Assembly (NCBI GenBank): GCA_964442705.1
Contig: CAYUAQ010000004.1
Coordinates: 4,512-68,511 of the forward strand
Reading direction: 5' to 3'
Length of the DNA stretch: 64,000 nt
Source of the DNA: an uncultured Desulfobacteraceae bacterium
GTDB taxonomy: Bacteria; Desulfobacterota; Desulfobacteria; Desulfobacterales; JALSRD01
Shown in pieces: positions 8,198 to 62,998 of the stretch. A program made the translations under genes and the position numbers. The notes beneath the pieces were generated by a model. It did not search any database. It was not told where the DNA came from and worked only from the letters and a program-made list of their open reading frames with translations. The first letter of the stretch is position 1, and every line of letters begins with the position of its first letter.

Positions 8198-8200
8198 GGG

Positions 8201-30550: not shown

Positions 30551-31999
30551 TCACGCCGGTGTCGTCCGGGCCAGATGCGACAGGTAGGTTTCCGCCTGGG
30601 GGGCGATCTCGTGATGGGGATACTTGCTGACCAAACCCCGCAGAATCTTGCGGGCCCGCTCGGGGTTCATCAGGCGGTCGTGGAAGATCTGGGCGGCCCG
30701 GAAATAGGCTTTGGGCACCAGGGGATCATCCGGATGGGACTTGACCAGGCGGTTGAAGGCAGCGATGGCGGCCTTGCTCTTGCCGCTTTCATTGAACCAG
30801 CTTCCCAGATGAAACAGGGTCTTGGCCGGCGGGATAAAGGTGCCGTCGTCGGCCATGCATTCACCATAGAGCTGCAGGGCCTCCTGTTTCCTGCCGGCGC
30901 CCGCCAGCAGATCCAGGTGGCGGACGCGGTGTTTCTTCAGCAGATCGTCGCGTTTTTTTAACTTGAGCAGGGTGTAGTACCGTTCGGACAGTTCCACGTC
31001 TTCTATCCCGTCCCTGACGGCGGCCGCCTCCAGTGCCGCCACGGCTTCGTCATGTCGGCCCTCTTTTATCAGCAGGTTGACCCGATTGAGCAGCAGGGTG
31101 TTCTCGTCCGTTTCCTCGGACGGTCCCTGGGCCTCGGGGTCCCTGAAATCTTCGTAGTTGACCTCGTATCCGATCTGGCGATGATACTGCAGAATGACGT
31201 ATCCCATCAGGTGGTAGGAGATGATGGCGTAATACACTTTGGCCAGACCGAACAGGAAAACGGCCAGGGGAACGGGCAGGTACTGGATGAAATGACGCCC
31301 CAGGACCATGGGGGCGCTGCCCAGTAGTGACAGGAAGAAATACAGCAGCAGGTAGCTCCAGCCGATACGCAGCGCCAGTCCGATGAACAGCACGGGATTG
31401 AGGGCGCCGACAAGCGAATTGGTGGTCGCCAGCAGGATGATCATGGCCGGTGCCATCAGCATGGCCAGCAGATAGAACACGATGGCCAGGAAACGCCCGC
31501 CCCCGGCGGCGGCCATGACCAGTCCGATACCGATGACGGCGAACAGCACAATCTGCTTGAACACCTGGTGGAAGTCGTCCGACAGGGTGCGTGCGTCCAG
31601 GGGCGGCGGCTTGAGATCACCGGAAGCCGTGGACGTAAGGGCGGCGTAGCTGTACTTGAGGGTCACTCCCCACAGTAGAATGCGCGCGATGGCGGCAAAC
31701 AGGCCCCGCGCGGAAAAAGCCGTTCCGAGCGCCGCGACCACCACCATCAGGATGAGGGGCCAGCGGCTCAGCGGGTAGAGAAAAAACCGCGGCAGCCGCT
31801 GCCAGAAGGGAGCGATGACATTTTCGACCCCCAGCCAGCGGGCCGGTATGCGGCAGGTGGGACACAGGTGCAGGGTTTCCGGGTTCAGTCCCGTGTCGTG
31901 GGTGCGCACCAGGATGCAGTCCGGGCAGAAAGCGGCGCCGCAGGTGTCGCAGACCCACTGCGCCGGCCGTGTGGGGTGGTAACGGCACGACTGTCTCAT
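30551..31999 (-). CDS. Membrane protein: N-terminal double zinc-ribbon, multi-TM core, C-terminal TPR repeats
   Basis: CRYHP....WVCDTCGAAFCPDC....LCPTC Cys pairs, about 6-7 hydrophobic helices, then TPR-like helical repeats. I cannot assign a family. Confidence 0.5.
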   Translation of the reverse strand: MRQSCRYHPTRPAQWVCDTCGAAFCPDCILVRTHDTGLNPETLHLCPTCRIPARWLGVENVIAPFWQRLPRFFLYPLSRWPLILMVVVAALGTAFSARGLFAAIARILLWGVTLKYSYAALTSTASGDLKPPPLDARTLSDDFHQVFKQIVLFAVIGIGLVMAAAGGGRFLAIVFYLLAMLMAPAMIILLATTNSLVGALNPVLFIGLALRIGWSYLLLYFFLSLLGSAPMVLGRHFIQYLPVPLAVFLFGLAKVYYAIISYHLMGYVILQYHRQIGYEVNYEDFRDPEAQGPSEETDENTLLLNRVNLLIKEGRHDEAVAALEAAAVRDGIEDVELSERYYTLLKLKKRDDLLKKHRVRHLDLLAGAGRKQEALQLYGECMADDGTFIPPAKTLFHLGSWFNESGKSKAAIAAFNRLVKSHPDDPLVPKAYFRAAQIFHDRLMNPERARKILRGLVSKYPHHEIAPQAETYLSHLARTTPA

Positions 32000-32182: not shown

Positions 32183-33673
32183 TCAGCCGGCGCCGGTTTG
32201 GAGCCACCGGTCCACGTATTTTCTGACGGTGCGCCGGTCCAAGCCGCAGCGGCGAGCGGCCGCCTCATAGGTGCCGCAGCGGCGGTACATCAGGAAGCAG
32301 TAGCCGTCCAGCAGGCGCTGGGCTTCGATGCTGCCGTTTTCAATGCCCGCTGTGAGCCGTGAGGCGAGGTCCGGTGCCCTGCTCTCGGAGGGGACTCCGC
32401 GGCAGTGCCGATTGAGCAGTATGCTGCGCACACACTGCTCCAGTTCCCGTACGTTGCCGGGCCAGGGGTACTCCTTTCCCAGGTCGCGCATGATGGCCTC
32501 GTGCACCATCCGCGTGATGCCCGGCAGCCGGCTGCCCAGCATGCGCTCCACCAGCAGACTGGTGAGATCCTCCAGCTCGGCCGGGTCTTCGGCCATGCGC
32601 TGCCGCAGGGGCGGGACGGTTATGATGTCCGAGCACAGGCGGTAGTAAAAGTCATCGCGCATCCGTCCCTGGCGGCGCAACGTGTCCATGGGCCGGTTGG
32701 TGGCGGCGATCACCCGGCCCTGGAAACGGTGCTCGCGGTGGCTGCCCACCGGCGAAAACACCCGTTCCTGCAGCACCCGCAGCAGTTTTATCTGTACCGG
32801 GATGGCGACGTCGCCGATTTCATCCAGGAAGATGGCCCCGTGGGGACTGCAGCGGTCGAAGATTCCCTGGTAGTCGTCCACCGCTCCGGTAAAGGCGCCT
32901 CTCCGGTGTCCGAACAGTTCGGATTCGATCAGGTTTTCGGGAAACTGGGACAGGTTCAGGGAGATGAAGGAGCGGGTGAAACTCTCCACGAAACGGCGGT
33001 ATTTCTCGTCGTAGGGGATGAAGCCGGATCGGCCGATGGCCGCCGCGGCCGTGCCCTTGCCCGTGCCGGTCTCTCCCAGGATGAGGGTCGAGAAATCCTC
33101 CATGCGGTCCCACAGGTAGCGGTTGTACAGGTCCAGGTCATGGGTGAAGACGTCGTTCCAGAGCTTGCGCCGCAGCGCCTGCATACAGGCGCTGCGGCCC
33201 ACCAGGCTGGAGGCGATGAAAAAGTAGGCCCGTCGCAGTTGAAAGACCACCTCGAAATAGCGGCACATATCCGCGATCTCAAAACCTCTTTCCCCCAGAT
33301 AGGAAAATGCCTGGCGGGCGAAGGGCACCTCCAACGGCCGGTTCCCGGCTTCGATCTGGTCCAGGATGAAACGGTCGAAGCGGTCGATGAAACGGTGGAA
33401 AAAGTCAAACAGCAGGGAAGTCTCCAGCAGCCGGCGGTCCTCTCCCCCGTAGCTGCGGATGTTCCCGCCGCCTCTGTGCTCCAGGCGCTGGAGGTATGCC
33501 CCGATTTTGCCCGTCAGGGCCTCCATCCGTCGCGGCTCGGGGACGTCAGCGGGCAGGCCGGTGATCTGCAGGTCCAGGGCGGTGCGTTCGTCACTGAACG
33601 GATTCGTAAAGACCGCCCGGCTGACCAGGGTGAAGAACCGGCGTTCTTCAGGTGTGAGATGGTGTCTTTGCAT
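32183..33673 (-). CDS. Sigma-54-dependent transcriptional activator (bEBP) with non-canonical N-terminal domain
   Basis: AAA+ core GETGTGKG, ESELFGHRRGAFTGA (GAFTGA loop), FLDEIGD, RVIAATN, and a C-terminal HTH (YEAAARRCGLDRRTVRKYV). The first ~190 aa are not a receiver, PAS or GAF domain as far as I can recognise. Confidence 0.85.
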   Translation of the reverse strand: MQRHHLTPEERRFFTLVSRAVFTNPFSDERTALDLQITGLPADVPEPRRMEALTGKIGAYLQRLEHRGGGNIRSYGGEDRRLLETSLLFDFFHRFIDRFDRFILDQIEAGNRPLEVPFARQAFSYLGERGFEIADMCRYFEVVFQLRRAYFFIASSLVGRSACMQALRRKLWNDVFTHDLDLYNRYLWDRMEDFSTLILGETGTGKGTAAAAIGRSGFIPYDEKYRRFVESFTRSFISLNLSQFPENLIESELFGHRRGAFTGAVDDYQGIFDRCSPHGAIFLDEIGDVAIPVQIKLLRVLQERVFSPVGSHREHRFQGRVIAATNRPMDTLRRQGRMRDDFYYRLCSDIITVPPLRQRMAEDPAELEDLTSLLVERMLGSRLPGITRMVHEAIMRDLGKEYPWPGNVRELEQCVRSILLNRHCRGVPSESRAPDLASRLTAGIENGSIEAQRLLDGYCFLMYRRCGTYEAAARRCGLDRRTVRKYVDRWLQTGAG

Positions 33674-33805
33674 TCATGGCTCCACGGTCGGGCCGGCGGC
33701 GGCACGACCGTGCCGGGAGCCAGCCGGGACTTCGGGTTGGTCTGGCATCGATGCGCATTCCGAATATCTGGAAGGCATTTCGGCCGTAAAAATAAAGTAC
33801 ATAAT

Positions 33806-33824
33806 ATGTATACCATATATACAT
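33806..33824. promoter_or_regulatory. Inverted repeat ATGTATA-N5-TATACAT, candidate activator binding site
   Basis: Read directly. It lies about 100 bp upstream of the candidate -24/-12 element at 33923, in the divergent intergenic region. Confidence 0.25.
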
Positions 33825-33922: not shown

Positions 33923-33938
33923 TGGCATGTTTCTTGGT
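33923..33938 (+). promoter_or_regulatory. Candidate sigma-54 (-24/-12) promoter for the VIT-vWA/rhombosortase pair
   Basis: TGGCATGTTTCTTGGT compared with consensus TGGCACG-N4-TTGCW. The -24 half is good; the -12 reads TTGG instead of TTGC. It lies 77 nt upstream of ATG 34015. Confidence 0.4.
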
Positions 33939-34014: not shown

Positions 34015-36108
34015 ATGGAAAAGTCGATCTTTGGGAACATGCTCAAAAAAAGCAGGTTGGTGCTGACCGTCCTCGCCCTGGTGGTTTTGGGCGGCGTTTT
34101 CGCCGGCCGCGGCCAGGCGGCCGGGCTGCTCATCGCCGACGGCGGCTTCGGCGGCGTGCTGGAAATCGAGGCGCACACCGTCCAGGTGACCATCAACAAC
34201 GGTGTGGCCGTCACCCGGGTGAGCCAGGTGTTTCGCAACACGGAAAAGCGGCAGGTGGAGGCCCTGTATACGTTTCCGGTGCCCAGGGGCGCTTCGGTGG
34301 CCAGTTTTTCCATGTGGATCAACGGCAAGGAAATGGTGGGCGAAGTGGTGGAAAAAAAGCGTGCCCGCCAGATTTACGACAGCTACAAGCGTAAACGGCG
34401 CGATCCGGGATTGTTGGAGCAGGTGGACTACAAGACCTTCGAGATGCGCATTTTCCCCATCGCGGCCGCCGCCCGCCAGAAGGTGCAGATCGTCTACTAC
34501 CAGGAACTGGCGGTGGACAACGACCAGGTGACCTACGTCTACCCCCTGGCCACGGCCACGCGCCGCGACGTGGACGCCCGCACGGCGGCAAAATTCGCCA
34601 TCAACGTGGACATCAAGTCCGCCGTTCCCATTACGACCGTGGACAGCCCCAGCCACCCCGACGCCTTCGTGGTGGCCCGGCACGCGGACACCCTGGTGCA
34701 GGCCAGCCTCGAAAGCGCCGGCGGCAGCCTGGCTTCGGACGTGGTGGTGCACTACGCCCTGGCGCGCCCCCGCACAGGTCTCGACCTCATCACCTCGCGT
34801 ACCGCCGGGCAGGACGGCTACTTCATGCTGACCCTGACGGCCGGCCAGGAACTGGCCCTGAAAAACGCCGGCATGGACTATGTTTTCCTGCTGGATATCT
34901 CCGGCAGCATGGCGCACGACGGCAAGCTGGTGACCTCCAAGCACTCCATCGACGCCTTCATCGATGCGCTGGACGAGGGCGACCGTTTCGAAGTCATGAC
35001 CTTCAATGTCAGTCCCCGCACCCTGTTCGGCAGCCTGCAGCCGGCTGCCGCCGAGACGAAAAAACAGGCCCGAACCTTCATGGGTTCCCAGCAGGCCAGG
35101 GGCGGCACCGTGCTGGCGCCGGCCATGACCACGGCTTACAGGTACGGCGACCCCGACCGCACCTTGAACGTGGTGATCCTCAGCGACGGCATGACCGAGC
35201 AGAAGGAGCGGCGGGAGTTGCTGGGGCTCATCGGTTCCCGGCCGCGCAACGCGCGGGTGTTCTGTATCGGCGTGGGCAACGAGGTCAACCGCCCGCTTTT
35301 GGAGCAGCTGGCCGAAGACTCCGGCGGGCTGGCGGCCTTCATCTCGCAGGGCGACGACTTCAAGCGCCAGGCGCAGGCTTTTCGCCGCAAGCTGACGCAC
35401 CCCGTGGCCACCGATCTTGACATCGGCTTCGACGGCGTCCAGGTCTACGACGTGGAGCCGCGCATCCTGCCCAACCTGTACCACGGCGCACCGGTGCGCA
35501 TTTACGGCCGCTACAGGGGCAGCGGTACGGCCCGCGTGTCTCTCAAGGCCAGCGTCCGCGGCGTGGAACTCAGCCAGACCACCGCGCTGCCGTTTCCGGC
35601 GGAAGACGCCGGCAATCCGGAGATCGAACGCATGTGGGCCAGCAAGCGCGTGGACCGGCTGCTCAAAAAGGCCGACCGCACCGGAACCCGCCAGCAGGTG
35701 GCCGACGAGGTCATCCGGCTGGCCGAGGCATACGCCATCGTCACCGAGTACACCTCGTTTCTGGTGCTGGAAAATGACGCCGAGTACAAGCGCTGGAAGA
35801 TCCAGCGGCGCAGCGCCGCGCGCATGGCCCGCGACCGCCGCGCCCAGGCCGCCCGTCAGGAGGCGCTGGCGGACATTCGGCGCAGGGCCGTGGCCGACCT
35901 GGGTCCCCACGCGGTTCGAGGTTCCGGAAACAGCGTACCGACCCGGCCGGCATCCGGAAAGTCACCGGTCCCGGCAGCACAACCTTCTCCGGCACCCGCG
36001 ACCCGTCCCCAGAGCCGCAACATCGATTTGGGCGTGGGAACGGGACCGGTGGGACCGCTGTTCGTGGCCGCCGCCTGCTGGCTGAGGCGGCGAAAGAAGA
36101 AGAGGTAA
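34015..36108 (+). CDS. Secreted VIT + von Willebrand factor A domain protein with C-terminal Gly-rich/TM/poly-basic sorting-like tail
   Basis: RBS GGAAAGGAG. Signal peptide ...LALVVLGGVFAGRGQAA. VIT-like N-terminus. vWA MIDAS motif VFLLDISGSM. Pro/Ser-rich linker, then the tail GVGTGPVGPLFVAAACWLRRRKKKR (nt 36031-36105). Confidence 0.8.
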   Translation: MEKSIFGNMLKKSRLVLTVLALVVLGGVFAGRGQAAGLLIADGGFGGVLEIEAHTVQVTINNGVAVTRVSQVFRNTEKRQVEALYTFPVPRGASVASFSMWINGKEMVGEVVEKKRARQIYDSYKRKRRDPGLLEQVDYKTFEMRIFPIAAAARQKVQIVYYQELAVDNDQVTYVYPLATATRRDVDARTAAKFAINVDIKSAVPITTVDSPSHPDAFVVARHADTLVQASLESAGGSLASDVVVHYALARPRTGLDLITSRTAGQDGYFMLTLTAGQELALKNAGMDYVFLLDISGSMAHDGKLVTSKHSIDAFIDALDEGDRFEVMTFNVSPRTLFGSLQPAAAETKKQARTFMGSQQARGGTVLAPAMTTAYRYGDPDRTLNVVILSDGMTEQKERRELLGLIGSRPRNARVFCIGVGNEVNRPLLEQLAEDSGGLAAFISQGDDFKRQAQAFRRKLTHPVATDLDIGFDGVQVYDVEPRILPNLYHGAPVRIYGRYRGSGTARVSLKASVRGVELSQTTALPFPAEDAGNPEIERMWASKRVDRLLKKADRTGTRQQVADEVIRLAEAYAIVTEYTSFLVLENDAEYKRWKIQRRSAARMARDRRAQAARQEALADIRRRAVADLGPHAVRGSGNSVPTRPASGKSPVPAAQPSPAPATRPQSRNIDLGVGTGPVGPLFVAAACWLRRRKKKR

Positions 36109-36202
36109 CCCATGATCCGTTGGGGGGAGCCGGTCTCCCCCTCCGTTCCCTGACAGGTCTGTGTTGGGGATGATGCTACTTTGAAAAAAATGAGGACCAC
36201 CC

Positions 36203-36907
36203 ATGCTGACTACGCCAACCGACTGCCGCGGGAATTGTGCCTTGCCCGACCGTAAAGTGCCGGCGGCTCACTGCCGGGTGTGGAAGCTGCTAAGAACACG
36301 GCTGGACATGCTGATGCTGCTGGCGGCCGTCGTGGTTTTCAACGCCCACCTGGCCGGCCTGGGATCCGGCGGCTGGGCCCTTTTCGTGCCGGCGGCCGTC
36401 AAAGGCGGCCAGTGGTGGCGGGTATTTACGCACCCCTTTGTGCACGTCAGCTGGTATCACCTGCTGCTGGATGCCGGCGCATTTTTCCTGCTCTACGACG
36501 GCTTGGAAGAGAAGCGCAGGACCCGAAAACTACTACTCCTGCCCTTTTGCGCAGCCGGGGGGCTGCTGGCGGCCGTGACCTTCTCACCGCTCACCGAAAC
36601 GGCTGGCCTGTGCGGGCTTTCGGGCACGGCCCATGGCCTGATGGCCTTTTCAGGCCTGGAGATGATGCGCACGCCCGGCAGGCGGGGCACGGGTACAGCC
36701 CTCTTCATCCTGGTGGCCGTCAAGAGCCTCTACGAGCTGGCCACCGGCAGGGTGTTTTTCGATTTCCTGCACATGGGGCTGTGCGGCGCGCCCGTGGCCG
36801 CCTGCCACCTCGGTGGCGTGGCCGCCGGCACGGCCGCCTTCGTACTGTTCAGTGTGCTGCCCCACCGCAGCGCAACAGCGCGTCACAGGCATTTCGTCGG
36901 GGCGTGA
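36203..36907 (+). CDS. rrtA: Rhombosortase-like rhomboid-family intramembrane protease
   Basis: Short (234 aa) rhomboid with GGQWWRVFTHPFVHVSWYHLLLDAGAFF, catalytic GLSGTAHGL and ..VAACHLGGVAAG. This pattern and size fit what I remember of rhombosortase rather than a generic GlpG. GAGGA RBS sits 6 nt upstream. Confidence 0.6.
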   Translation: MLTTPTDCRGNCALPDRKVPAAHCRVWKLLRTRLDMLMLLAAVVVFNAHLAGLGSGGWALFVPAAVKGGQWWRVFTHPFVHVSWYHLLLDAGAFFLLYDGLEEKRRTRKLLLLPFCAAGGLLAAVTFSPLTETAGLCGLSGTAHGLMAFSGLEMMRTPGRRGTGTALFILVAVKSLYELATGRVFFDFLHMGLCGAPVAACHLGGVAAGTAAFVLFSVLPHRSATARHRHFVGA

Positions 36908-39584: not shown

Positions 39585-39690
39585 AATACGTTCTCCTGCT
39601 TTGCTGCGGCTACTTCCCCTTTCCCTGTGAATATGGGCATATTGCCGGATCTGACGACTTCAGCCGGGATGGGCGGCAGGGACTCCGGTT

Positions 39691-47981: not shown

Positions 47982-48979
47982 ATATCCTGGCCATAGAAAC
48001 CTCCTGCGATGAAACCGCCGCCGCCGTGGTGGCCAACGGCCGCCGCGTGCTCTCTTCGGTGGTGGCTTCCCAAGTCGACGTGCACCACCGTTACGGCGGC
48101 GTGGTGCCCGAACTGGCCTCGCGCAAACACATCGAAGCCATCGTGCCGGTGGTGCGCGAAGCACTGGAGCACAGCGGTATCGGTCCGGACAAGCTGGATG
48201 CCGTGGCCGCCACCCGCGGGCCGGGCTTGGTGGGCGCTCTGCTGGTGGGTTTTTCCTTTGCCAAGGCCTATGCCTACGGGCGCCAGCTGCCCTTCGTGGG
48301 AGTCAATCACCTGGCCGGCCACATCAACGCCGTTTTTCTCACCGACGATCCGCCGGTCTTTCCCTTCGTGGCCCTGCTGGTCTCGGGGGGTCATACCGCC
48401 CTGTACCGGGTGTCTTCCCACACGCGCATGCAGCTGATGGGCCAGACCCGCGACGACGCCGCCGGCGAAGCCTTCGACAAGGTGGCCAAGATGATGGGGC
48501 TGGGCTATCCCGGCGGGCACGTCATCGGCGAGATGGCCGCCCGGGGCAACCCGGATGCCATCGCCTTTCCGCGTTCCTACCTGGACAGGAAGGGTTTCGA
48601 CTTCAGCTTCAGCGGTTTGAAGACCGCGGTGCGGCGCTACCTGCAGCTGCACGCGGACACCTTCCGCGACCACATGGACGACATTGCTGCCGGGTTCCAG
48701 GAGTCCGTGGTGGACGTGCTCAGCTTCAAGCTCATGCAGGCCGCCCGGCACACCGGTTGCCCGCGCGTGGTGCTGGCAGGGGGGGTGGCCGCCAACCGGC
48801 GGCTGCGCGAAAGGGTCACCGCCGAGGCGGCGCAACAGGGCCTTGAGGTGCACCTTACGCCCGTTTCCCTGTGCGGGGACAACGCCGCCATGATCGCCGC
48901 GGCCGCCTTCCACGAACTGCGGGCCGGCACCGACACCCCCCTAGGCGCCGACGTTTTTTCCAGGGCCCGGCTCGGCTAG
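47978..48979 (+). CDS. tsaD: tRNA N6-adenosine threonylcarbamoyltransferase
   Basis: ILAIETSCDETAAAV, HH.YGGVVPELASR.H, GGHT and GGVAAN are canonical TsaD/Kae1 motifs. The start overlaps the upstream stop (ATGA). Confidence 0.95.
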   Translation: MNILAIETSCDETAAAVVANGRRVLSSVVASQVDVHHRYGGVVPELASRKHIEAIVPVVREALEHSGIGPDKLDAVAATRGPGLVGALLVGFSFAKAYAYGRQLPFVGVNHLAGHINAVFLTDDPPVFPFVALLVSGGHTALYRVSSHTRMQLMGQTRDDAAGEAFDKVAKMMGLGYPGGHVIGEMAARGNPDAIAFPRSYLDRKGFDFSFSGLKTAVRRYLQLHADTFRDHMDDIAAGFQESVVDVLSFKLMQAARHTGCPRVVLAGGVAANRRLRERVTAEAAQQGLEVHLTPVSLCGDNAAMIAAAAFHELRAGTDTPLGADVFSRARLG

Positions 48980-49557
48980 TTTTTCGTATAGTATGAACTT
49001 TTTGTAACAAATTATTGCTTTCTTACCATACTTCTATTACCTTCTTTACATAGTTTTTTTGAAAAACCATAAGTATAGTGTGTCACATTGTACTTATACA
49101 ATATATTGATTTGCACATTTATTGCATATCATATTGTATGGTTAGGTTAAACTTCTTCACCCGTTTACTGGTTTATCTAAATTTACCTCGAGGAGGACAA
49201 CCTTACCCCGAATTTGGGGCTTGCTGCCGAATCGAATCAGATAGCGTGGCAATATGTACGGAGCATCTAAAATAAAAAATACCAATTTTCTGGACGTATT
49301 CTGAGCGCAAACTCTCCCTCCCGGCTTAAACCGATTTTCTGAATCATCCATGGGCAAGGCTTTTCCCTCCTGATCTGATAAATGCCACGCTTTTTCACGG
49401 TGGATTTCCTCCTTAATTTTCAATGGTGGCCGGAAATACATAGACGGATAGACCTACGAGGGACACCCCGCAGGGTCACGCGTCTCCCCGACATTTGTAT
49501 CTCCGAATGTAACAGATGTTACCGTAGATACTGATTGATACTCCAAAGGGGGCCTTT

Positions 49558-50454
49558 ATGAGACGTTCTCCCATAATCAGCCAACTCATTGTTATTTTGA
49601 TTCTTGGGCTATGGTCTTTACAGAGTGAGCATGTTCATGCGCAGTCGGTTGAGAAGCCGCGCATCGCTATAAAAACACCACTTTTGGGGGAAGGTGTAAG
49701 TAAGAATACCCGCAAGCACCTCAATATTTCACAGCTCCTTGCGGAAATGGAAGCTTCCCTGCGAGCAACAAGAAAATTTGAAGTCCTCACTCGGCAGGAA
49801 AAGACCCTTGAAACGATTCGTGAGGAGCAAAAGTTTGCGGAGTCTGATTTCGCCAAAGGGAACGCAGCCCACCGGGGACAATTAGAGAATGCCAACTTCT
49901 TTGTCATCCCCACCGTTCAAAATTTTAAATTCTACCGTTCTATAAGACCAGTTCCAAACATTGCCAACAAGTTTATACGCCGGGATTCAGGATTGCTCGA
50001 GATTACTGTTCAGACAGTGGATACGACGACAGGAGCGATCAAGGCGACATTTTATTTGAAAAGTTCCTTTGCCACTAAAGACATGGTCGTCAACAGCAGG
50101 GGCGGATCCCCAAGCTCCGTTCACTTTGTAAAGATGGCGAAGACAGTATCTGCACAGATGGCAGACCAGTTGATTGACACGGTATTTCCCATGCGGGTGC
50201 TGAACAGAACGGCAAATCAGGTGTGGATAAACCGGGGGAAGGATGGAGGCTTAAAAGCTGGTGATATCCTGAACGTCTATCGTCCCGGTGAGGAACTGAT
50301 CGACCCCGACACGGGTGAAAGGCTGGGTTCGGCTGAAGTACTGGTTGGCAAAATTAAAGTGACGCGAGTTAATCCTAAATTTACCGTGGCTGAAATCCAG
50401 TCTAAAGATACCCAGGGGTCAATAGAAAAGGGCGACATAGTCCGAAAACCCTAG
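49558..50454 (+). CDS. Secreted protein: LpoB/CsgG/TolB-N-like alpha/beta domain + C-terminal small beta-barrel (FlgT-C-like) domain
   Basis: RBS AAAGGGGG. Sec signal ...LWSLQSEHVHAQS. Motifs RIAIKTP..., RKFEVLTRQE, ANFFVIPTVQNF, LLEITVQTVDTTTGAIKAT. The barrel is VWINRGKDGGLKAGDILNVYRPGEELIDPDTGERLGSAEVLVGKIKV...GDIVRK. Confidence 0.6.
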   Translation: MRRSPIISQLIVILILGLWSLQSEHVHAQSVEKPRIAIKTPLLGEGVSKNTRKHLNISQLLAEMEASLRATRKFEVLTRQEKTLETIREEQKFAESDFAKGNAAHRGQLENANFFVIPTVQNFKFYRSIRPVPNIANKFIRRDSGLLEITVQTVDTTTGAIKATFYLKSSFATKDMVVNSRGGSPSSVHFVKMAKTVSAQMADQLIDTVFPMRVLNRTANQVWINRGKDGGLKAGDILNVYRPGEELIDPDTGERLGSAEVLVGKIKVTRVNPKFTVAEIQSKDTQGSIEKGDIVRKP

Positions 50455-50492
50455 TGGCATCCAACGGCATAATTCTGAGAATGGAGCGTGCC

Positions 50493-53390
50493 ATGAAAAT
50501 CCATACCCAAACGATTATTGCACTGTCGTTTACGGTTTTTCTTTTTGCCAGCATTACCGGTACCAGCCGGTCGAAAGCCGAGACTTCCAAACCCAGTGCA
50601 TTGTCTTCTCATGAAAAAAAATTAAGGATTGCCGTTATCGGACACTCGGACTTTCTCCCGGACCGGACCGGGATACATAACAGGTGTGTCATCGGGCTTC
50701 CCGATGTTCTTGCAGCACGAATCCTTGAACATCTTACCAACAGCAAGCGCTTCGTTCCGGTGGAAAGAAAAGCGCTCCGCAAGGTTGTATTGGAACAGCG
50801 TTTCGGACAGGACCTGCGAAAAACTTATCTTGACCGCACCTTGGATAAGGCCATCGTAGAAATGGAAGAGATGGCCGGTGGAATGGTGAAGGGGACCGCA
50901 AGTGAAATCCAGGCAAAGACAGGGTCTATAGGTATCGGCGTTAAAAAGACATCGCCGGTCGAACCGAGGCCTGTCGGGGGCGGAATCGCAAAAGGGACCG
51001 GGGATGTCGGCACAACGGGAACGCTGGCCAATTATAACGACATCCTGAAGGATTTTCAGGATCTCGGCACTGCGGTCGGTGCTGATTATCTCGTTTTGGG
51101 TAATCTCGAAAAACTCACCCGGAAAACAAGGGAGATTGCCGTACCGTACAGCAGTGAAGGGCGAAAAGTCCGTAAAAACATCGTTGACGCCCGTCTGCGT
51201 TTGCGCGTCATCGAAGTCAACTCTGGGATGATAGTGGGCGCCACCAGCCTTCGCACCAAGATGGCTGAAACAATATTTGAGGGCAGGGAGACCGACACGG
51301 ACGCGTATTCAATTTTCGACCATTTGGGCCGGTTGGCGGCAGTCAACATCCTGGATGCAACCTTCCCGGCCAGAATCGTGAGCGTGGAACCGCTGATCTT
51401 GTCCCGAGGAACGAACGACGGCGCCAGAGTAGGAGACGTTTATGTGATTCAACATGAGGGCAAAGAGATCAGGGATGATTCCGGCGTGGTCATCGGCCGA
51501 CTGAAGATCGATGTCGGCAGGGTGGAAATCCAGGCTCCGCAAAATACATTGTCTGTCCTCAAACCGATCACCAAGGGGAATTTCGCCAAGGGGGATCTTG
51601 CCGTTCTTGATGTCAAGGCCACCGAAGCGAAACCCGCAGATGTCCCCTCATCGTCGACCGTTCCCCTGACCGGACGTAATGCCGGAATGCGTTCATCTGA
51701 AAAACGACTTCCCCGCGTGGCCGTCGGTTTGATCAAATCCGGATCCACGGAACGGCCAACCAAGGGTAAAGAGCGACATGTCGTCATATTTACCGACACC
51801 ATCATTTCACGCCTGGCTCAGACCAAGCGCTTTCAACTAATCGACCGCCAGGAAGTTGACCAGCTTCTCACCGAGCAACTGGCCCAGGCATTGGCCGAAA
51901 ACCGCGACATGGCCAGCGCCATGGGAACCCTGAGAGGAGCGGATTATTTCGTGTACGGCAGTTTGGCAGATATTGATATCAGAGAATCAAGCACCAGATT
52001 GCCGGGATCTTCCCGCATTTTCAAAAGAAAAATCGGTTATGCCGAGGGAAACATGCGTATCGTGGATGTCCGCAGCGGCGATGTTTTGGAATCGCGCAAG
52101 GTATCCGTTAAAGAAATCCTTGAGCCCGGGGCGAAGGGCAGCCGGAATCTCGCCCTGCTTGCCGATGCCTATGCCGAACAGGTTGTTTTGAACTTGATGA
52201 ATGCGGTTTATCCCATCAAGGTTGCCGCCGTGGGTGAGGATGGAAGCGTATACATCAACCGCGGAGATGATGGCGGTCTCTTTGTCGGTGAGCACTTGGA
52301 CGTCTTCAGACCCGGACCGCCGGTAATAGACCCTGACACCGGTGTCCAGCTGGGCGTTGAAGAGACCCTGGTCGGACAGGTTGAGCTTAGCGATGTCGAA
52401 GATGCCAGGAGCAAAGGATTTCTTGTCGCGGGTGGTGGAATCCTCGCCGGCGATATTCTGAAACGCACAGCAAATAATCGGGAGAAACGCGCCGCCCAGG
52501 CAAAGAGCCCTGCACCATCTACAAGTGGAGCGACACTGCCCGGCGTTTCAAGGCCTCCCGGTGAAAAAAAGAAGAGCGGTAAAGCAACGCTGGCTGTGGG
52601 GATGCTCAGATTTAACAAAACCGCCCGAAAAGATGGATTGGGTCAGGGACACATCGAACGCATGACAGACGACTTGATTGTCAAGCTCACAAACACAAAC
52701 CGGTTTTTGTTGTTGGAGCGGCAGGAGGTCGATCAGGTACTGGATGAAAAGGCTTTCGATGCGGTTGTATCCGGAGGCGATATTCATGATCGGCTCCAGG
52801 AACTGGTTGGAGCGGATTATTTGATTCATGGCGAGATCTCAAATCTGTACACAACCACGCAAAGAAAAAGGGTGCCCTATTTGAATGAAGAACAAATCCT
52901 TGTCCACGGTATTGCCGAAGGCACCTTTCGAATCGTTGACGTGCATACCGGAGGTGTTGTCGCCGCGGACAAGGTGCGGATCGATAAACGGATAAAATCG
53001 GGTCGTGACACTACCCGGGTGATCAGTGATCTGATGGACGACTTTACAACCAAGGCTGTCAGCCTGATCGTGGAACGGCTTTACCCGATCAGGGTATTGG
53101 GGGTGACCGCCGACGGCAGCGTGTATCTGAACCGGGGTGCGGACGGCGGCTTGAAGAAAGGAGCCATATTCGCGGTGATGCGGCCGGGGAAAGAATTGGT
53201 GGATATGGACACCGGCCTTTCATTCGGAAAAGCCGAGATAAAGGTTGCTTCGGTGAAAATAGTGGCCGTGGAGGCGTCTCGCGCAAAGGCAGCGGTTGTC
53301 AGCCTCGGAAGTGATGTAAGGGCCGGCGATATTCTGCGAAAGATGCAGACAGCTGTCGAGAAGAAACCCGTTTTAAGCCCTTCATGGTAG
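50493..53390 (+). CDS. Large secreted protein made of three tandem [LpoB/CsgG-like domain + beta-barrel] modules
   Basis: Signal-like N-terminus MKIHTQTIIALSFTVFLFASITG, then three copies of the module seen in the preceding gene (see the repeat feature). The start could be 50454, 50481 or 50493. Confidence 0.6.
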   Translation: MKIHTQTIIALSFTVFLFASITGTSRSKAETSKPSALSSHEKKLRIAVIGHSDFLPDRTGIHNRCVIGLPDVLAARILEHLTNSKRFVPVERKALRKVVLEQRFGQDLRKTYLDRTLDKAIVEMEEMAGGMVKGTASEIQAKTGSIGIGVKKTSPVEPRPVGGGIAKGTGDVGTTGTLANYNDILKDFQDLGTAVGADYLVLGNLEKLTRKTREIAVPYSSEGRKVRKNIVDARLRLRVIEVNSGMIVGATSLRTKMAETIFEGRETDTDAYSIFDHLGRLAAVNILDATFPARIVSVEPLILSRGTNDGARVGDVYVIQHEGKEIRDDSGVVIGRLKIDVGRVEIQAPQNTLSVLKPITKGNFAKGDLAVLDVKATEAKPADVPSSSTVPLTGRNAGMRSSEKRLPRVAVGLIKSGSTERPTKGKERHVVIFTDTIISRLAQTKRFQLIDRQEVDQLLTEQLAQALAENRDMASAMGTLRGADYFVYGSLADIDIRESSTRLPGSSRIFKRKIGYAEGNMRIVDVRSGDVLESRKVSVKEILEPGAKGSRNLALLADAYAEQVVLNLMNAVYPIKVAAVGEDGSVYINRGDDGGLFVGEHLDVFRPGPPVIDPDTGVQLGVEETLVGQVELSDVEDARSKGFLVAGGGILAGDILKRTANNREKRAAQAKSPAPSTSGATLPGVSRPPGEKKKSGKATLAVGMLRFNKTARKDGLGQGHIERMTDDLIVKLTNTNRFLLLERQEVDQVLDEKAFDAVVSGGDIHDRLQELVGADYLIHGEISNLYTTTQRKRVPYLNEEQILVHGIAEGTFRIVDVHTGGVVAADKVRIDKRIKSGRDTTRVISDLMDDFTTKAVSLIVERLYPIRVLGVTADGSVYLNRGADGGLKKGAIFAVMRPGKELVDMDTGLSFGKAEIKVASVKIVAVEASRAKAAVVSLGSDVRAGDILRKMQTAVEKKPVLSPSW
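50619..53342 (+). repeat. Three tandem protein-level modules (approx. nt 50619-51611, 51708-52463, 52578-53342)
   Basis: Recurrent motifs per module: KRFVPVERKALRKVVLEQ / KRFQLIDRQEVDQLLTEQ / NRFLLLERQEVDQVLDEK; ADYLVLGNLEKL / ADYFVYGSLADI / ADYLIHGEISNL; RLRVIEVNSGMIVGA / NMRIVDVRSGDVLES / TFRIVDVHTGGVVAA. Barrels: VYINRGDDGGLFVGEHLDVFRPGPPVIDPDTGVQLG / VYLNRGADGGLKKGAIFAVMRPGKELVDMDTGLSFG; module 1 is more diverged. Confidence 0.7.
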
Positions 53391-53441
53391 GCGGCGGGTA
53401 AGTCGCACTGTTTGGATCTGGCGCGTTCGGGTTTGGCGGAT

Positions 53442-55292
53442 ATGAAAAGCAGAAGAGCTGCACTCACATTGGTCTGTTTCGTCACTTTTCTATTCACGGG
53501 CTGCCTGACCACTCGCCGGGTGGGCAATCCAGGTAGCAGTGGTTTCTATCAATTCATCAGGCCCTTCCCGGCACCCCGGCAACCGATAGCGAAGAGCCCA
53601 ATACCCGGCACAGGATATCATACGCCTTCGACAGTCAGCGACCCAACGAGGAAGCAGGTGATTTATTCCGGCTATTCCAGAGCATTTATACCTGTAAAAA
53701 AATTAATTGTATCGGGGAAGATCGAAGAGGCTGCCGGAATTTATTCCCAAAAAAACAAAAAGAGTCCATTCACCTTTGGCATCGAGAACTTAAAAAAGGG
53801 AATGAAGGGCCCCAGGGTTGCTGAAGTGCAGAACTGCCTGAAAGTCAAGGGGTTCGACGTAGGATCCGTCGATGGTGTGTATGGGCCTGCCACGAAAGCG
53901 GCGGTCATGCGGTTTCAACGTAAAAACGGGTTGAAGGCGAGTGGCATTGTCGATCCGGCCACATGGAACATTCTTCACAGGGACCTCCCACCAAGCTTCG
54001 CGGTAGAAGAGTTTCCCGGAACTGCGAGAATATGTCTTTTAAGATCAAAAGAGCTGGCTAATTTGGAGGGGGGAACCCTGGCGCTTGATTGTGGTGCTTT
54101 TGACGAGGCGGTGGAGAGATTTTCGGATGCAGAGGATCTGTTCGCAAGACAAGAGAGAGGGGGTAAAGTCTGGTCGTGGTTAAAAAAGTGGTTAACTTTT
54201 TTAGGGGAAACCGTATCGGGCGACGAAGAATTTCAGCCTTATGCAGGCGAAGGGTATGAGAGGGTGCTCATGCTCAACTATAAGAGCATTGCCTATCTGC
54301 TGCAGGGGGACCGAAAAGCGTATAATGTTACTCGGCGTGCCATCAACTGGCAGAACATTGAGAAAAAGCGTTTTGAAAAACAACTGAGGGAAGTCAAGAG
54401 GAAACTGGCCGAAAAAGAAGCCGAGGAAAAATCAAAGGACAAAGACTTCGATGTGTTCAATATCCGGAAGGTTGTGGCAGAGGAATATACCGCCACGGAC
54501 TCCCGGGCGATTTCTGTACCCAATGCATATGTCAATCCTTTCGGGTTTTATGTCGCCGGTATGATACAGGAATTCGAAAGCCGGGACGATATCAACCTGC
54601 GCGACAATGCGAGGATTTCATACAGGAAAGCACTCGAGTTGAATCCTGCCAGCAGAGTGATCAAAAAAGCCGTGCAGGAACTCCAAAAACCCTCTGCACC
54701 AATGAAAAAACGGCTGGTGCATGTGGTATTGGCGGACGGGTTCGTTCCGGAAAAAAAACTCCTGATTCTGCCACTCCCCTTAAGAATCGCTCCAATCCCA
54801 ATTAAATTGCCGATCTATCAACCGGTCCCCTCACGGGTCCACCGTGCCGTGGTTTACGACGGAAGGGGAAGAAAATTGGCCACTCTGTCAGCCGTCGCGG
54901 ACATAGAGGCCATTTGTCTTCGACATCAGAAAGATTCCGAACCCTTTCGTTACTTCCGGACGTTGCTGGCCACGGGCCGTTCGTATCTGATTTCAGGTTT
55001 TCTGAGCCAAGTAGGTGCTTTCGGTAACCACGCGGCAAAGGCCATCGTGGAAATGGCAACACCGGACATGCGGTCATGGATGTCCCTGCCGGCAACGATT
55101 CAGGCGGCACGGTTTTATATTCCGAAAAATGAGAAAAAAATAAGGATCACGACCTATGACGCCAAGGGAAAACGCCTGGCATCCAAAAGCGTTGTCCTCG
55201 ACACCTCGGGTGATAATTTTGTCTATGTGCGAAGCCTGGATAACATTTTATATGCACACGCCAATCGGAGAATGTGGCTGGCATCGAAATAG
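53442..55292 (+). CDS. Lipoprotein with peptidoglycan-binding (PG_binding_1) domain and large helical C-terminal region (COG3014-like, tentative)
   Basis: Lipobox LFTGC. PG-binding repeat GPRVAEVQNCLKVKGFDVGSVDGVYGPATKAAVMRFQRKNGLKASGIVDPATW. The helical/TPR-like body has EGYERVLMLNYKSIAYLLQGD.KAYNVTRRA, which I associate with the uncharacterised COG3014 family. Confidence 0.55.
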   Translation: MKSRRAALTLVCFVTFLFTGCLTTRRVGNPGSSGFYQFIRPFPAPRQPIAKSPIPGTGYHTPSTVSDPTRKQVIYSGYSRAFIPVKKLIVSGKIEEAAGIYSQKNKKSPFTFGIENLKKGMKGPRVAEVQNCLKVKGFDVGSVDGVYGPATKAAVMRFQRKNGLKASGIVDPATWNILHRDLPPSFAVEEFPGTARICLLRSKELANLEGGTLALDCGAFDEAVERFSDAEDLFARQERGGKVWSWLKKWLTFLGETVSGDEEFQPYAGEGYERVLMLNYKSIAYLLQGDRKAYNVTRRAINWQNIEKKRFEKQLREVKRKLAEKEAEEKSKDKDFDVFNIRKVVAEEYTATDSRAISVPNAYVNPFGFYVAGMIQEFESRDDINLRDNARISYRKALELNPASRVIKKAVQELQKPSAPMKKRLVHVVLADGFVPEKKLLILPLPLRIAPIPIKLPIYQPVPSRVHRAVVYDGRGRKLATLSAVADIEAICLRHQKDSEPFRYFRTLLATGRSYLISGFLSQVGAFGNHAAKAIVEMATPDMRSWMSLPATIQAARFYIPKNEKKIRITTYDAKGKRLASKSVVLDTSGDNFVYVRSLDNILYAHANRRMWLASK

Positions 55293-55309
55293 GAGGGAGA
55301 GGGAAGACC

Positions 55310-55801
55310 ATGAAACTGGGGAAACTCATCATACGGGCTGGCGGGTTGTTGGTAATCGCAGTTGTTTTTGGATGTACCCCGGCAGTCAAGCCGGCGGCAG
55401 AACAGCGGGTAGTGCCTCCAGCGCCGGCCAAACAGCAGCCGGTTGCTCCGGTTGCTCCGGCGACGACGGACACCAGTCACCCGCGCGCCAAGTTGATTGT
55501 CGGTTCCGGGCAGCTTGCGGGCAAGGTCGTAATCACCGATCCCAGGTTTCGGTCTGTGGGCCGGCTCAACCAGGCCGAAGTCACGGTAAAAAATTTAACG
55601 GAAACCCGCTATGCCTTGGAGTACAAATTCGAATGGCAAGACAAGCAGGGCTTTTCCATAGACAGCGGTAACGTTTGGCATCCTTTTACACTCACTCCGC
55701 TGCAAACCCGGCGATTTCAGTCAACCGGTAAAACACCGCAGGCGTCGGCGATCATTTTCATGATCCGTTTTCCCGACGATGCGTTCAGTGAATCGTATTG
55801 A
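55310..55801 (+). CDS. YcfL-family (DUF1425) lipoprotein
   Basis: RBS GGAGGGAGAGGGAAG. Lipobox VVFGC. Pro/Ala linker. Then ..VVITDPRFRSVGRLNQAEVTVKNLTETRYALEYKFEWQDKQGFSID, the typical YcfL pattern. Confidence 0.6.
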   Translation: MKLGKLIIRAGGLLVIAVVFGCTPAVKPAAEQRVVPPAPAKQQPVAPVAPATTDTSHPRAKLIVGSGQLAGKVVITDPRFRSVGRLNQAEVTVKNLTETRYALEYKFEWQDKQGFSIDSGNVWHPFTLTPLQTRRFQSTGKTPQASAIIFMIRFPDDAFSESY

Positions 55802-55825
55802 GGTCAAGCCAAAGGAGAGTTGGAG

Positions 55826-56422
55826 ATGAACAGAAATCAGTGCTTTATCATTCCAGGAGTTTTTGTTGCGCTTGTTTTCTGCCTGGGTGCCTGCAGCACC
55901 ACAACACATGGACGGCAGAGCAGTGCTGTCCCCCCCGATTCGGCGGCCTATGGAGGGCAGGGACCCGGACAGGGAAGCGGCGTTGTGGTGCTGGACCCAG
56001 ACAACCGTGCTCACCTGCAGACCGAGCTCACCATGGGGGATTATCTGGCATTTGCCGAGAAGGTGACCAACAAGATGCTCATATCCCCGGTGGTCCAGAG
56101 CTGGGGAGACAAGCGACCCCGGCTCATCGTCGGCCGGCTCGTCAACAACACGGATAATGAAAACATCCGAATGGCAGACATCCAAGACCGGATTCAGGAG
56201 ACCATCTTCAATTCCGGCCTTGTCCGCGTGGTGGACAAGTCGGCAACCCGCTTCGACTATATTGTGAAAACGGAGTTGACCTCCACACGCCAGTACGGGG
56301 AAGACGGCCAGGAACTGGCCTATTTTACCATACAGTTGAAACTGTTTAAGCTCGATGGGGAACTGATGGGCCAGTGGTCGGATGTGCTGCCCCTGGGGAA
56401 GTCGAAAAGAAGATTGTTTTGA
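55826..56422 (+). CDS. LpoB-like (COG3417) lipoprotein, penicillin-binding-protein-activator family
   Basis: RBS AAAGGAGAG. Lipobox CLGAC. A disordered linker is followed by ...KVTNKMLISP.....GDKRPRLIVGRLVNNTDNENI....IQDRIQETIFNSGLVRVVD......FDYIVKTELTS....YFTIQLKLFKLDGELMGQW, as in LpoB. Confidence 0.65.
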   Translation: MNRNQCFIIPGVFVALVFCLGACSTTTHGRQSSAVPPDSAAYGGQGPGQGSGVVVLDPDNRAHLQTELTMGDYLAFAEKVTNKMLISPVVQSWGDKRPRLIVGRLVNNTDNENIRMADIQDRIQETIFNSGLVRVVDKSATRFDYIVKTELTSTRQYGEDGQELAYFTIQLKLFKLDGELMGQWSDVLPLGKSKRRLF

Positions 56423-60424: not shown

Positions 60425-62791
60425 TCAGGGCAGCAGCCGCGAGGATTGGTTGTTGTTTTCGTCTGTTTCGGCGACGGCGTTCTCGGTGTCCACTTCCAGG
60501 ATCAGGTACTGGCCCGCGGGGTCGTGGTCGACCTTGGCCTTGAATCCTGCCGTGACCGTTTTGCCCCCCGTGACCTTTTTGATGTTTTTCGGTTTTTTCA
60601 GCAGGGGCGTGTCCCCGGGGTCCAGCACATCGTCCGCCGAAAGGTAAACCTGCACCCGGAACGTACCCGTGGGCACGTCCGATGTGATGCCGTATTTGCC
60701 CTTGAGCGTGTAGCGGCCCTTTTTGGGCCCCTTGACCGTGGCCTGCAGCCATTGGCCGGTGAGATCCACGCCCTGGATCTGCCGGGTGGCGGTGTTGTTG
60801 GTCTCGTCGGTTTCGGCCACCAAGTCGTCCATGTCCACCACGGCACTGATCATGCTGGCGGCGTCGGTCACCAGGTCCACGGCCTTGGCCTTGAACCCGA
60901 CGGTAGTGCGCTGGGAAGGTTTGAGGGCCTTGACCTTGCGGCCTTTTTCCAGGATCATGGGCCCGCCCGCCGGATAGGTGATGCCCAGGCTGCATCTTTC
61001 GGATGTGCGGTTGCCAGTATTGGTGACCGCGACCTTTCCCTTGAGGCTGTGGCGGCCGTTTTTGTCCGGGCCCGCGATGTCCAGCCGGCTCCAGGCCACG
61101 TTCAGCTCGGGACCGATGACGATGGGCGCCAGTTTGCCGGGCGAACCGGTGCGCCGGTAGGAGCCGCGGCCGGTTCCCCACAGGATGCGGGCGTCGGCGG
61201 TTCCCGGCAGGTCGTAGGCCGCAAAACCCGCATGGGCGGTGTTGACCACGATCTCCAGATCGGGGTCGTCGTCGATGTCCGCCAGGGTGGGGGCGGGCAG
61301 GGCGCCGTTCCAGCCGAGGCTGCCGTAGGCCGGCGGCAGGTCGACGGAGTGCAGGACCTTGCCCTGGTAGCTGAGGATGTAGAGTTTTCCCGTACCGTTC
61401 GAGCCCTTCTGCACCCAGGTGGTGAAGATAACCTCGGCGTAGCCGTCGATATCCAGGTCCGCAACGGCCGGTTCCGAGGCGAAGCGGGTGACCTTGTCGC
61501 CGGATTTGGTGACGGCAAAGGGCCAGCTGTGGTGCTCGCTCTTGTCCAGCCAGAAGGCGTGCAGGCGACCGTCGTAGGAAGGGTACAGGATTTCCAGGCG
61601 GCCGTCGCCGTCCAGGTCGGCGGTCACCGTGTTGGGCTGGCAGCTTTCGATGATGTTGTAGTTCTGGATGAGGGGCTCCCCGGTGTTCTGCGGGACCGTG
61701 CGCCAGTCGAATCCGTCACGGTCGAACCGGCTGCGGTCGGCGTTGAAGATGTAAGGGCCGTTGAAGTGGTCGGTGTAGGGATCGGTGTGGCAGTCGTGCA
61801 CGTCGCCCACCACGACGACTTCGTTGACGCCGTCGCCGTCCACGTCCGCCACGTTGGCGGGGCCGTTGGCGAAATTGGCCCGCAAGGTATACTGGTCGTA
61901 GCAGGGACCCCAGCCGCGGGTTTCGTACGCGAGATCGACATAGGCCGGCACCTCGCCCCAGTGATCCATGTCGTGGCCGGCGTGGCCGTGGTACATGCTG
62001 TTGGTGCCCAGCTGCTGTCCGTCCGCCCGGTAGGCGCAGACGGTGATGGTGTCCGAAGGCACGATCACCTCGGGTAGCCCGTCGCCGTCCAGATCCCCGA
62101 TGCCGATGTTGTCGTTGTACAGGCCGGCGGCCGAGCCCTCGCCGCCTGCCAACCGCGGCCATCCCCGGCGCACCTTGCCGGTGTGCTCCAGCACCCACAC
62201 GTTGTTCTTGTTGAGCTGGGCGCGGCCCACGATGATTTCAAGGTCGCCGTTGCCGTCCAGGTCGGCCACGGCGAGGCTGCGGAATTCCCGGCCGCTGGGG
62301 TTTTTCCAGGGCCAGCCGCCGTTGTCGAAATATCCGTCGGTATTGTAAACCGACACCCATCCGCCACCGTGGGCGGTGACGATCTCCAGCTCTCCGTCGT
62401 TGTCCACGTCGGCCACCACAATACCGGGCCAGGTGCGGCCCACGTTGCTCGATCCGTCGGAGTCGTTTCGGTCGTGGCCGGCCTTGACACGCCACAGCAG
62501 GTCACCGGTGGCACCATCGAGCGCCACGATGGAATAGGCCGAGGCGATCACTTCGGGCCGGCCGTCACCGTCCAGGTCCGCCACCGCCGGCGAGGAGTAC
62601 CATCCGGTTTCGCACCACGAGCTGTAGCAGCCGGCGTTCTGCCACTTGAGCTGCGGTGCGGGAATGTCGCCGGCCAGGGCGGGCGACACGCCTGCCGGCA
62701 GCAGACAGGACGCCAAATGGGCGGGTGAGCACAAAAAACCACCCGAAAAAAGGATCCAGCACAGTCGCAAAGCCAGCCGTCGGTACTTCAT
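60425..62791 (-). CDS. Secreted FG-GAP/VCBS-repeat beta-propeller protein with two C-terminal CARDB-like domains
   Basis: RBS GGGGGAGG. Signal peptide. At least 7 repeats of [VA]ADLDGDG..E[VI] spaced ~60 aa apart. C-terminal VTNTGN...ETDETNNT and ...ETDENNNQ CARDB signatures. Confidence 0.75.
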   Translation of the reverse strand: MKYRRLALRLCWILFSGGFLCSPAHLASCLLPAGVSPALAGDIPAPQLKWQNAGCYSSWCETGWYSSPAVADLDGDGRPEVIASAYSIVALDGATGDLLWRVKAGHDRNDSDGSSNVGRTWPGIVVADVDNDGELEIVTAHGGGWVSVYNTDGYFDNGGWPWKNPSGREFRSLAVADLDGNGDLEIIVGRAQLNKNNVWVLEHTGKVRRGWPRLAGGEGSAAGLYNDNIGIGDLDGDGLPEVIVPSDTITVCAYRADGQQLGTNSMYHGHAGHDMDHWGEVPAYVDLAYETRGWGPCYDQYTLRANFANGPANVADVDGDGVNEVVVVGDVHDCHTDPYTDHFNGPYIFNADRSRFDRDGFDWRTVPQNTGEPLIQNYNIIESCQPNTVTADLDGDGRLEILYPSYDGRLHAFWLDKSEHHSWPFAVTKSGDKVTRFASEPAVADLDIDGYAEVIFTTWVQKGSNGTGKLYILSYQGKVLHSVDLPPAYGSLGWNGALPAPTLADIDDDPDLEIVVNTAHAGFAAYDLPGTADARILWGTGRGSYRRTGSPGKLAPIVIGPELNVAWSRLDIAGPDKNGRHSLKGKVAVTNTGNRTSERCSLGITYPAGGPMILEKGRKVKALKPSQRTTVGFKAKAVDLVTDAASMISAVVDMDDLVAETDETNNTATRQIQGVDLTGQWLQATVKGPKKGRYTLKGKYGITSDVPTGTFRVQVYLSADDVLDPGDTPLLKKPKNIKKVTGGKTVTAGFKAKVDHDPAGQYLILEVDTENAVAETDENNNQSSRLLP

Positions 62792-62998
62792 GGAGACACC
62801 TCCCCCGGTTTCATGGGTGCAGCATGTTTTTTGGCATGTTCTCAAACCGTTTGAAATGCTTGACGCCGGACGACCGGATGGCTTTTCACCCCGGATGTAC
62901 GCTGTCGCTCCACCGAAACACGATCGGCGCTCCCTGGGCAATCCGTTGCCGGAGATTATTGAGAAGATACCGTTTTTTCACGCAACCACCGGTATTCA

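Follow-up and report, generated by a model that had tools for sequence, protein, structure and literature searches.

The 64-kb window analysed here (the whole stretch of 64,000 nucleotides taken from contig CAYUAQ010000004.1 of an uncultured Desulfobacteraceae bacterium) contains three adjacent genes that are treated below as one cassette. A gene for a VIT-vWA protein with a glycine-rich C-terminal tail, hereafter the cargo, is followed on the same strand by a gene for a small rhomboid-family protease and is preceded by a divergently oriented gene for a sigma-54 enhancer-binding activator. A first-pass annotation of the window had singled out the cargo and the protease as a dedicated pair of sorting substrate and sorting enzyme, possibly under sigma-54 control.

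The cargo, the protease and the tail

The cargo gene (34015..36108, + strand) encodes an ITIH-like precursor of 697 aa, counted from an ATG that is preceded by the Shine-Dalgarno sequence AAGGAG; the longest mechanical open reading frame (ORF) opens earlier, at TTG 33934. Pfam models placed a VIT domain at aa 52-161 (34168-34497, +; 108.3 bits) and a vWA domain at aa 290-442 (34882-35364, +; VWA_3, 74.8 bits), the latter with an intact MIDAS motif, DISGS, at aa 294-298. The hydropathy scan disclosed a hydrophobic segment at aa 9-25 and a short one at the C-terminus, and no other. The N-terminal segment is consistent with a signal peptide (about 34015-34116, +). A Pro/Ser-rich linker (35902-36018, +) runs into the tail, ...NIDLGVGTGPVGPLFVAAACWLRRRKKKR. 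These features had all been listed in the first-pass annotation (a 697-aa protein with signal peptide, VIT domain, vWA domain with MIDAS DISGS, and Pro/Ser linker), and they are confirmed by Pfam, hydropathy and motif scan. Neither LPXTG nor a PEP motif was found anywhere in the cargo protein by the motif scan.

The solved structures nearest to the cargo are those of ITIH4 (E=6e-28 over VIT and vWA), ITIH1 and PARP4. The cargo family is large: of the candidates scored, 2,911 proteins reach E<=1e-10, and the 120th best is still 63% identical. NCBIfam holds no dedicated model for it; the top match is TIGR03788, whose score of 248.5 bits stays below the cutoff of 551.65, and source databases label the relatives of the cargo 'VWA domain-containing protein'. 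To compare loci, one genome per GTDB species was scanned, giving 399 stretches with cargo relatives, and the best 80 of them (at least 59% identical) were used for locus counts. They span Desulfobacterota, Nitrospirota, Verrucomicrobiota, Planctomycetota and Kiritimatiellia. Across five phyla the cargo core is 59-70% identical, which is unusually conserved for a presumed surface protein. Such conservation may point to a conserved, inducible molecular function and not to a fast-evolving adhesin. AlphaFold models of proteins with VIT and vWA of the ITIH type are reported to form a 6_3 knot (preprint 10.1101/2023.06.16.545156); if this holds for the cargo, knotted folding would have to follow Sec export.

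The protease gene (36203..36907, +) encodes a 234-aa protein which scores 106.5 bits on the rhombosortase model TIGR03902 (RrtA family; cutoff 84), compared with 35.9 and 32.2 bits on GlpG models and 43.8 bits on Pfam Rhomboid. Alignment to E. coli GlpG structures puts the predicted catalytic residues Ser140 (36620-36622, +) and His202 (36806-36808, +) on S201 and H254, respectively, and matches the L1 WR motif (W72-R73) and H86, while D90 aligns with GlpG N154. The motifs W72-R73, H86LLLD90, G138-L-S140-G and H202LGGVAAG (a TM6 motif of the AHxxGxxxG type) contain those quoted in the first-pass annotation (..HLLLD, GLSGTAHGL and AACHLGG), which were found as given, and the catalytic and motif residues are conserved in 65 orthologues. 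Four residues after the catalytic Ser, a His is present (S140-G-T-A-H144) and kept in at least 80% of orthologues. This Ser+4 feature is specific to rhombosortases, as a His replaces GlpG Tyr205 'in virtually all rhombosortases' (PMC3237569). For five orthologues of other clades, TIGR03902 scores range from 79 to 119 bits, four of them above the cutoff and one, from locus L031, at 79.1 against 84. By all testable sequence criteria the 234-aa protein is a rhombosortase, and the assignment proposed in the first-pass annotation holds. The location of its ORF downstream of the cargo was also right, while the gap after the stop codon is 94 nt and not 95 nt.

The tail (36019..36105, +) is recognised by conservation as a putative tripartite sorting signal, built of the motif G675-T-G-P-V-G-P-L-F683, a short hydrophobic segment and the basic cluster RRRKKKR. 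At the extreme C-terminus it reads GVGTGPVGP / LFVAAACWL / RRRKKKR, that is, a Gly-rich motif, a hydrophobic segment and a basic cluster. All 120 of the 120 best homologues terminate in G-[ST]-G-P-V-G-P-L-F…W-L-x-R-R-K. Alignment of 29 sequences shows G675, P678 and G680 to be invariant and G677, P681 and L682 nearly so, and many relatives have a poly-Gly run ahead of S/T-G-P. With this tripartite architecture, a signal peptide and no further transmembrane segment, the cargo has the general layout of GlyGly-CTERM proteins.

Tail distribution, gene pairing and co-variation

In a search of 1.84 billion representative proteins, a profile of the 36 C-terminal residues gave 48 matches at E<=1e-3. 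Homology to the VIT-vWA C-terminal core was found in 33 of them, belonging to one or the other of two cargo subfamilies, the remaining 15 being short fragments. Among these representatives, the tail was found on no full-length protein from a different family. Matches with unrelated N-terminal pieces (P0123, P0145 and P0151) were discounted, being short and resembling fragments or chimeric gene calls. In the source organism, exclusivity was judged within the 64 kb of the window, where the only tripartite Gly-rich tail is that of the cargo, and no further such tails were present in the flanks of related loci. Because the tail is found on VIT-vWA proteins or fragments only, its confinement supports a system of one enzyme and one substrate, as far as sequence comparison can tell.

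Pairing of the two genes was assessed in the 69 loci whose downstream sequence extends for at least 1 kb, using a profile built from the window protease. In 64 of these 69, the cargo gene is directly followed by a rhombosortase ORF of the same orientation, an adjacency far beyond chance. The second VIT-vWA subfamily (P0150 type), which is less than 50% identical and bears the same tail, has the protease downstream in 4/4 metagenome loci and the activator upstream in 2/2. Co-occurrence of tailed VIT-vWA proteins with rhombosortase, suggested as a check by the first-pass annotation, is thus borne out at the locus level in both subfamilies. When all ORFs of 81 loci were clustered, the recurrent neighbourhood families were three only, the cargo, the protease and the sigma-54 activator, plus shadow ORFs; no type II secretion, MoxR, extra-protease or CPBP partner recurs in these neighbourhoods.

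A different tail flavour, GGGG-A-[IF]-D-P-[IL]-T-G…RRRR, characterizes Planctomycete loci and one Desulfobulbaceae locus, and the Planctomycete-flavour tail matches TIGR03867, a GlyGly-CTERM subtype (23.1 bits; cutoff 19.7). Between the two flavours, protease identity has a median of 21% and a maximum of 27%, compared with about 39-40% within a flavour. The cargo core is 62% identical between flavours and 65-70% within them. Tail and protease thus appear to change together and independently of the cargo core, a pattern expected of an enzyme and its recognition signal.

The tail is strongly conserved, confined to VIT-vWA proteins and almost always encoded next to a rhombosortase gene, although TIGR03501, the curated GlyGly-CTERM model, misses it. 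Its strong conservation in spite of this supports the view that GPVGPLF is a variant sorting signal, a GlyGly-CTERM dialect unseen by the curated model, which is what the first-pass annotation had suggested of it.

Some loci carry additional ORFs in the vicinity of the protease gene. Two Planctomycete loci, L058 (3434-6556) and L075 (8830-11967), have an ORF of ~1,040 aa directly after rhombosortase, and in L007 a second rhomboid-like ORF (9953-10678) lies ~1 kb beyond the rhombosortase of the cassette.

Probable sigma-54 regulation and neighbouring genes

The activator gene (32183..33673, - strand) encodes a protein of 496 aa that matches Pfam Sigma54_activat (PF00158) with 145.8 bits. It is organized into an all-alpha N-terminal domain (aa 1 to ~190), an AAA+ sigma-54 interaction domain with the GAFTGA motif at aa 259-264, and a C-terminal HTH. 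A full-length orthologue is located divergently upstream of the cargo gene in 41/64 loci. The N-terminal domain has no Pfam or NCBIfam match, and its AlphaFold model is a confidently predicted nine-helix bundle (pLDDT 89.7, pTM 0.83) for which a Foldseek search against the PDB gave no significant fold match (best E=1.2, TM<=0.28). The model suggests a novel all-alpha domain, putatively a sensor.

A -24/-12-like promoter element, TGGCATGTTTCTTGG, occurs at 33923..33937 (+), 78 nt before the cargo ATG. When the pattern TGGCA[CT]-N6-TG[CGA] was searched up to 250 nt 5' of the cargo gene, it was detected in 45/79 loci, where about 0.6 would be expected (background 0.007 per 250 nt). Furthermore, the palindrome TACATAATATGTA (33798..33810), a candidate upstream activating sequence, is positioned 125 nt upstream of the -24 element. 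The corresponding TACA-N5-TGTA is present 91-127 nt upstream of the -24 element in 20/77 loci, and it has 25 occurrences in the total of 878 kb of locus DNA. This palindrome is probably an enhancer at which the activator binds. Sigma-54 control of the cargo gene, raised as a possibility in the first-pass annotation, is supported at the level of sequence by the conserved activator, the -24/-12 element and the candidate enhancer.

The 94-nt intergenic gap between the cargo and protease genes folds no better than its shuffles (z=0.68) and has no terminator-like site, and an attenuator or terminator at this place was rejected on these two grounds. The two genes are probably co-transcribed.

Adjoining the activator gene, a 482-aa protein is encoded at 30551..31999 (-), which has a B-box-type zinc finger at its N-terminus, TPR repeats at its C-terminus and about four transmembrane segments. 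It was considered as a core member of the cassette and rejected, being conserved only in close relatives (loci L001 and L003).

Other parts of the window were also inspected. Between genes for an FAD oxidoreductase and an LCAT-like lipase, loci L001 and L002 of close relatives hold a pair encoding an M4 metallopeptidase and emfourin, a protease inhibitor (15745-17125 in L001), where the window has only a 106-nt gap (39585..39690). The stretch 48000..56000 is low in GC (about 52-55%, compared with about 62% elsewhere) and includes an ORF of 978 aa with CsgG, LpoB and FlgT_C-like regions (50454..53390, +) and one of 626 aa with a peptidoglycan-binding domain (53412..55292, +); it may represent an acquired envelope-associated cluster. 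An 838-aa protein with FG-GAP repeats and a CARDB domain (60425..62941, -) is probably another secreted or surface protein. Finally, the stretch 5387..9625 (-) holds a gene for a 936-aa fusion of DUF1638 with hydantoinase/oxoprolinase domains, beside a gene of the MttB family (trimethylamine methyltransferase-like).

Proposed sorting mechanism, rival explanations and known systems

We propose that the three-gene cassette of sigma-54 activator, VIT-vWA cargo and rhombosortase is a dedicated protein-sorting system, with the tail as a family-specific dialect of GlyGly-CTERM, and we estimate the probability of this reading at roughly 0.78. To start the process, the activator would bind the TACA-N5-TGTA enhancer and open the -24/-12 promoter, as the conserved sequence elements suggest, and the promoter would drive the cargo gene together with the protease gene, the two probably forming one operon. 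The cargo would be exported by Sec, and its C-terminal Gly/Pro-rich helix and basic cluster are predicted to hold it transiently in the inner membrane. Rhombosortase, an intramembrane Ser/His protease, would then cut in or beside G-x-G-P-V-G-P, with loss of the anchor; family membership, gene adjacency and co-variation all point to this step. By analogy with VesB of V. cholerae, a glycerophosphoethanolamine lipid may then be attached to the new C-terminus, and surface display may follow through type II secretion. VesB was demonstrated to be cut behind the second Gly, to carry a glycerophosphoethanolamine adduct and to depend on type II secretion (PMC6219818).

Several observations weigh against this proposal. 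Neither the window tail nor the GPVGPLF tails of two relatives matched TIGR03501 (cutoff 15.5 bits) at E<=10, while a positive control, a classical tail composed after the consensus, scored 27.4 bits. The first-pass annotation had counted an unrecognised tail as evidence against the pairing, and formally the tail is unrecognised; we judge the comparative evidence to outweigh the silence of the model. The hydrophobic segment of the tail is short, ~12-13 residues, and was missed by a 17-residue hydropathy window. Pro, an unusual P1' residue for a serine protease, follows both conserved Gly residues of the motif, and the exact cleavage site is uncertain for this reason. There is no adjacent rhombosortase in 5/69 loci, where the ORFs that follow are unrelated and include no evident substitute protease, and no adjacent activator in 23/64. 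The -12 box in the window is TTGG where the consensus has TTGC, and the promoter pattern, counted in the window by itself, is no commoner than expected by chance. In addition, none of the scanned window ORFs was found to encode a type II secretion component.

The last of these observations would also fit the main rival, regulated shedding, in which rhombosortase frees a soluble ectodomain into the periplasm or medium and neither lipid attachment nor surface display follows. Ectodomain release is general rhomboid behaviour, and the tail motif is unlike the classical GG to which the lipid is attached in VesB, part of which is itself also released (PMC6219818). However, the protease falls within the rhombosortase subfamily, down to the active-site His that marks it, and the sole characterised rhombosortase yields a lipid-linked surface protein (PMC6219818). 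Shedding is considered improbable. Still far less probable is that the tail serves as a lasting C-terminal membrane anchor and the neighbouring rhomboid has some other role, e.g. in quality control or on a different substrate. The two genes are neighbours in the large majority of loci, in five phyla as well as in a second cargo subfamily, and tail flavour co-varies with protease clade while the cargo core does not, which would be difficult to reconcile with a permanent anchor, even if the blindness of TIGR03501 to the tail and the five loci without an adjacent protease are set on its side. Moreover, the invariant Gly/Pro-rich, helix-destabilising motif abuts the membrane segment, an arrangement typical of rhomboid substrates.

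Processing of the tail by a CPBP-family myxosortase instead of a rhomboid, as in MYXO-CTERM proteins, was suggested by the one model hit of the window tail, a marginal score of the isolated tail on TIGR03382 (16.1 bits; cutoff 15.85). The score drops to 13.9 bits, below the cutoff, in longer context, and a full-length scan gives none. MYXO-CTERM signals (TIGR03382 / TIGR03901) require an invariant signature Cys before the transmembrane segment, and the tail motif has no Cys; the only one in the tail, C688, is part of the hydrophobic segment, and relatives have Y, W, A or L at this position. Because the defining Cys is absent, and with no CPBP protease recurring in the neighbourhoods, this explanation was rejected as effectively refuted.

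The idea that the same cargo architecture is paired one-to-one with a different sorting enzyme, as put forward in the first-pass annotation, is supported by the present results, but it is not new, having been published by Haft and Varghese in 2011 (PMC3237569), the sole paper found in the literature searched on VIT-vWA proteins with rhombosortase or sigma-54. According to this survey, genomes with a single GlyGly-CTERM protein usually encode that protein beside rhombosortase (PMC3237569, Table 3), and homologues of the VIT/vWA 'vault protein' bear GlyGly-CTERM, LPXTG (with a dedicated sortase) or PEP-CTERM tails (PMC3237569, Fig. 3C). In Syntrophobacter fumaroxidans, Desulfuromonas acetoxidans and Rhodopirellula baltica, the only target carries a vault/inter-alpha-trypsin/vWA annotation (PMC3237569, Table S1). 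Where the hidden Markov model failed, rhombosortase-adjacent genes were inspected by hand (PMC3237569). These systems share with the cassette the protease subfamily and a tripartite-tailed target encoded beside the protease. However, no link to a sigma-54 activator, promoter or enhancer was reported for them, tail dialects were not separated, and 108 genomes were covered, compared with 399 GTDB species here (PMC3237569); their VIT/vWA targets are likened to the cargo by annotation. What appears to be new is the conserved sigma-54 activator, promoter and enhancer, the explicit GPVGPLF dialect, the co-variation of tail and protease, and the breadth and very high conservation of the family.

Three further systems offer partial parallels. 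The RssP/RrtA-VesB system of V. cholerae likewise has a rhombosortase whose substrate is exported by Sec and combines a Gly-rich motif with a transmembrane segment and a basic C-terminus, but one enzyme serves six targets, the genes are unlinked, and the motif is the classical SGG instead of G-x-G-P-V-G-P (PMC6219818). The marine proteobacterial sortase target (TIGR03788) is homologous to the cargo in its VIT-vWA architecture, as the subthreshold score of the cargo indicates, and follows the same logic of one enzyme and one substrate. It differs in that the cargo has no LPXTG and its partner is a rhomboid-family serine protease and not a cysteine transpeptidase; the neighbours of the cargo gene are a sigma-54 activator and a rhombosortase in place of a sortase. 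The VIT-vWA modules of ITIH1/ITIH4 and PARP4 are the best relatives of solved structure over VIT and vWA, whereas these proteins are eukaryotic, secreted or cytoplasmic, have no rhomboid partner, and in the case of ITIH are attached by an ester to chondroitin sulfate. In ITIH heavy chains, a C-terminal propeptide is cleaved off and the C-terminus so created becomes the point of covalent attachment. A more speculative idea is that the recurrent pairing of VIT-vWA cores with C-terminal cleave-and-attach enzymes (sortase, exosortase and two rhombosortase clades) mirrors this propeptide cleavage and covalent transfer.

It is possible, if doubtful, that the GPVGPLF tail and its rhombosortase clade make up a distinct dialect carried on a laterally mobile three-gene cassette. 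The cleavage site or the attachment chemistry may then differ from those of classical GlyGly-CTERM, because Pro follows both conserved Gly residues.

To our knowledge, the Vibrio rhombosortase, with its many scattered substrates, is the only one studied experimentally. A cassette of one enzyme and one substrate with its own inducible promoter would provide a cleaner model for the rhombosortase cut site and attachment. Since the curated GlyGly-CTERM model misses a widespread form of the tail, the cargo proteins are annotated only by their VWA domain, and annotation in Desulfobacterota, Nitrospirota, Verrucomicrobiota and Planctomycetota would gain from a dedicated model. The conserved sigma-54 activator, together with the candidate enhancer, would offer a route to the condition that induces bacterial ITIH-like VIT-vWA proteins.

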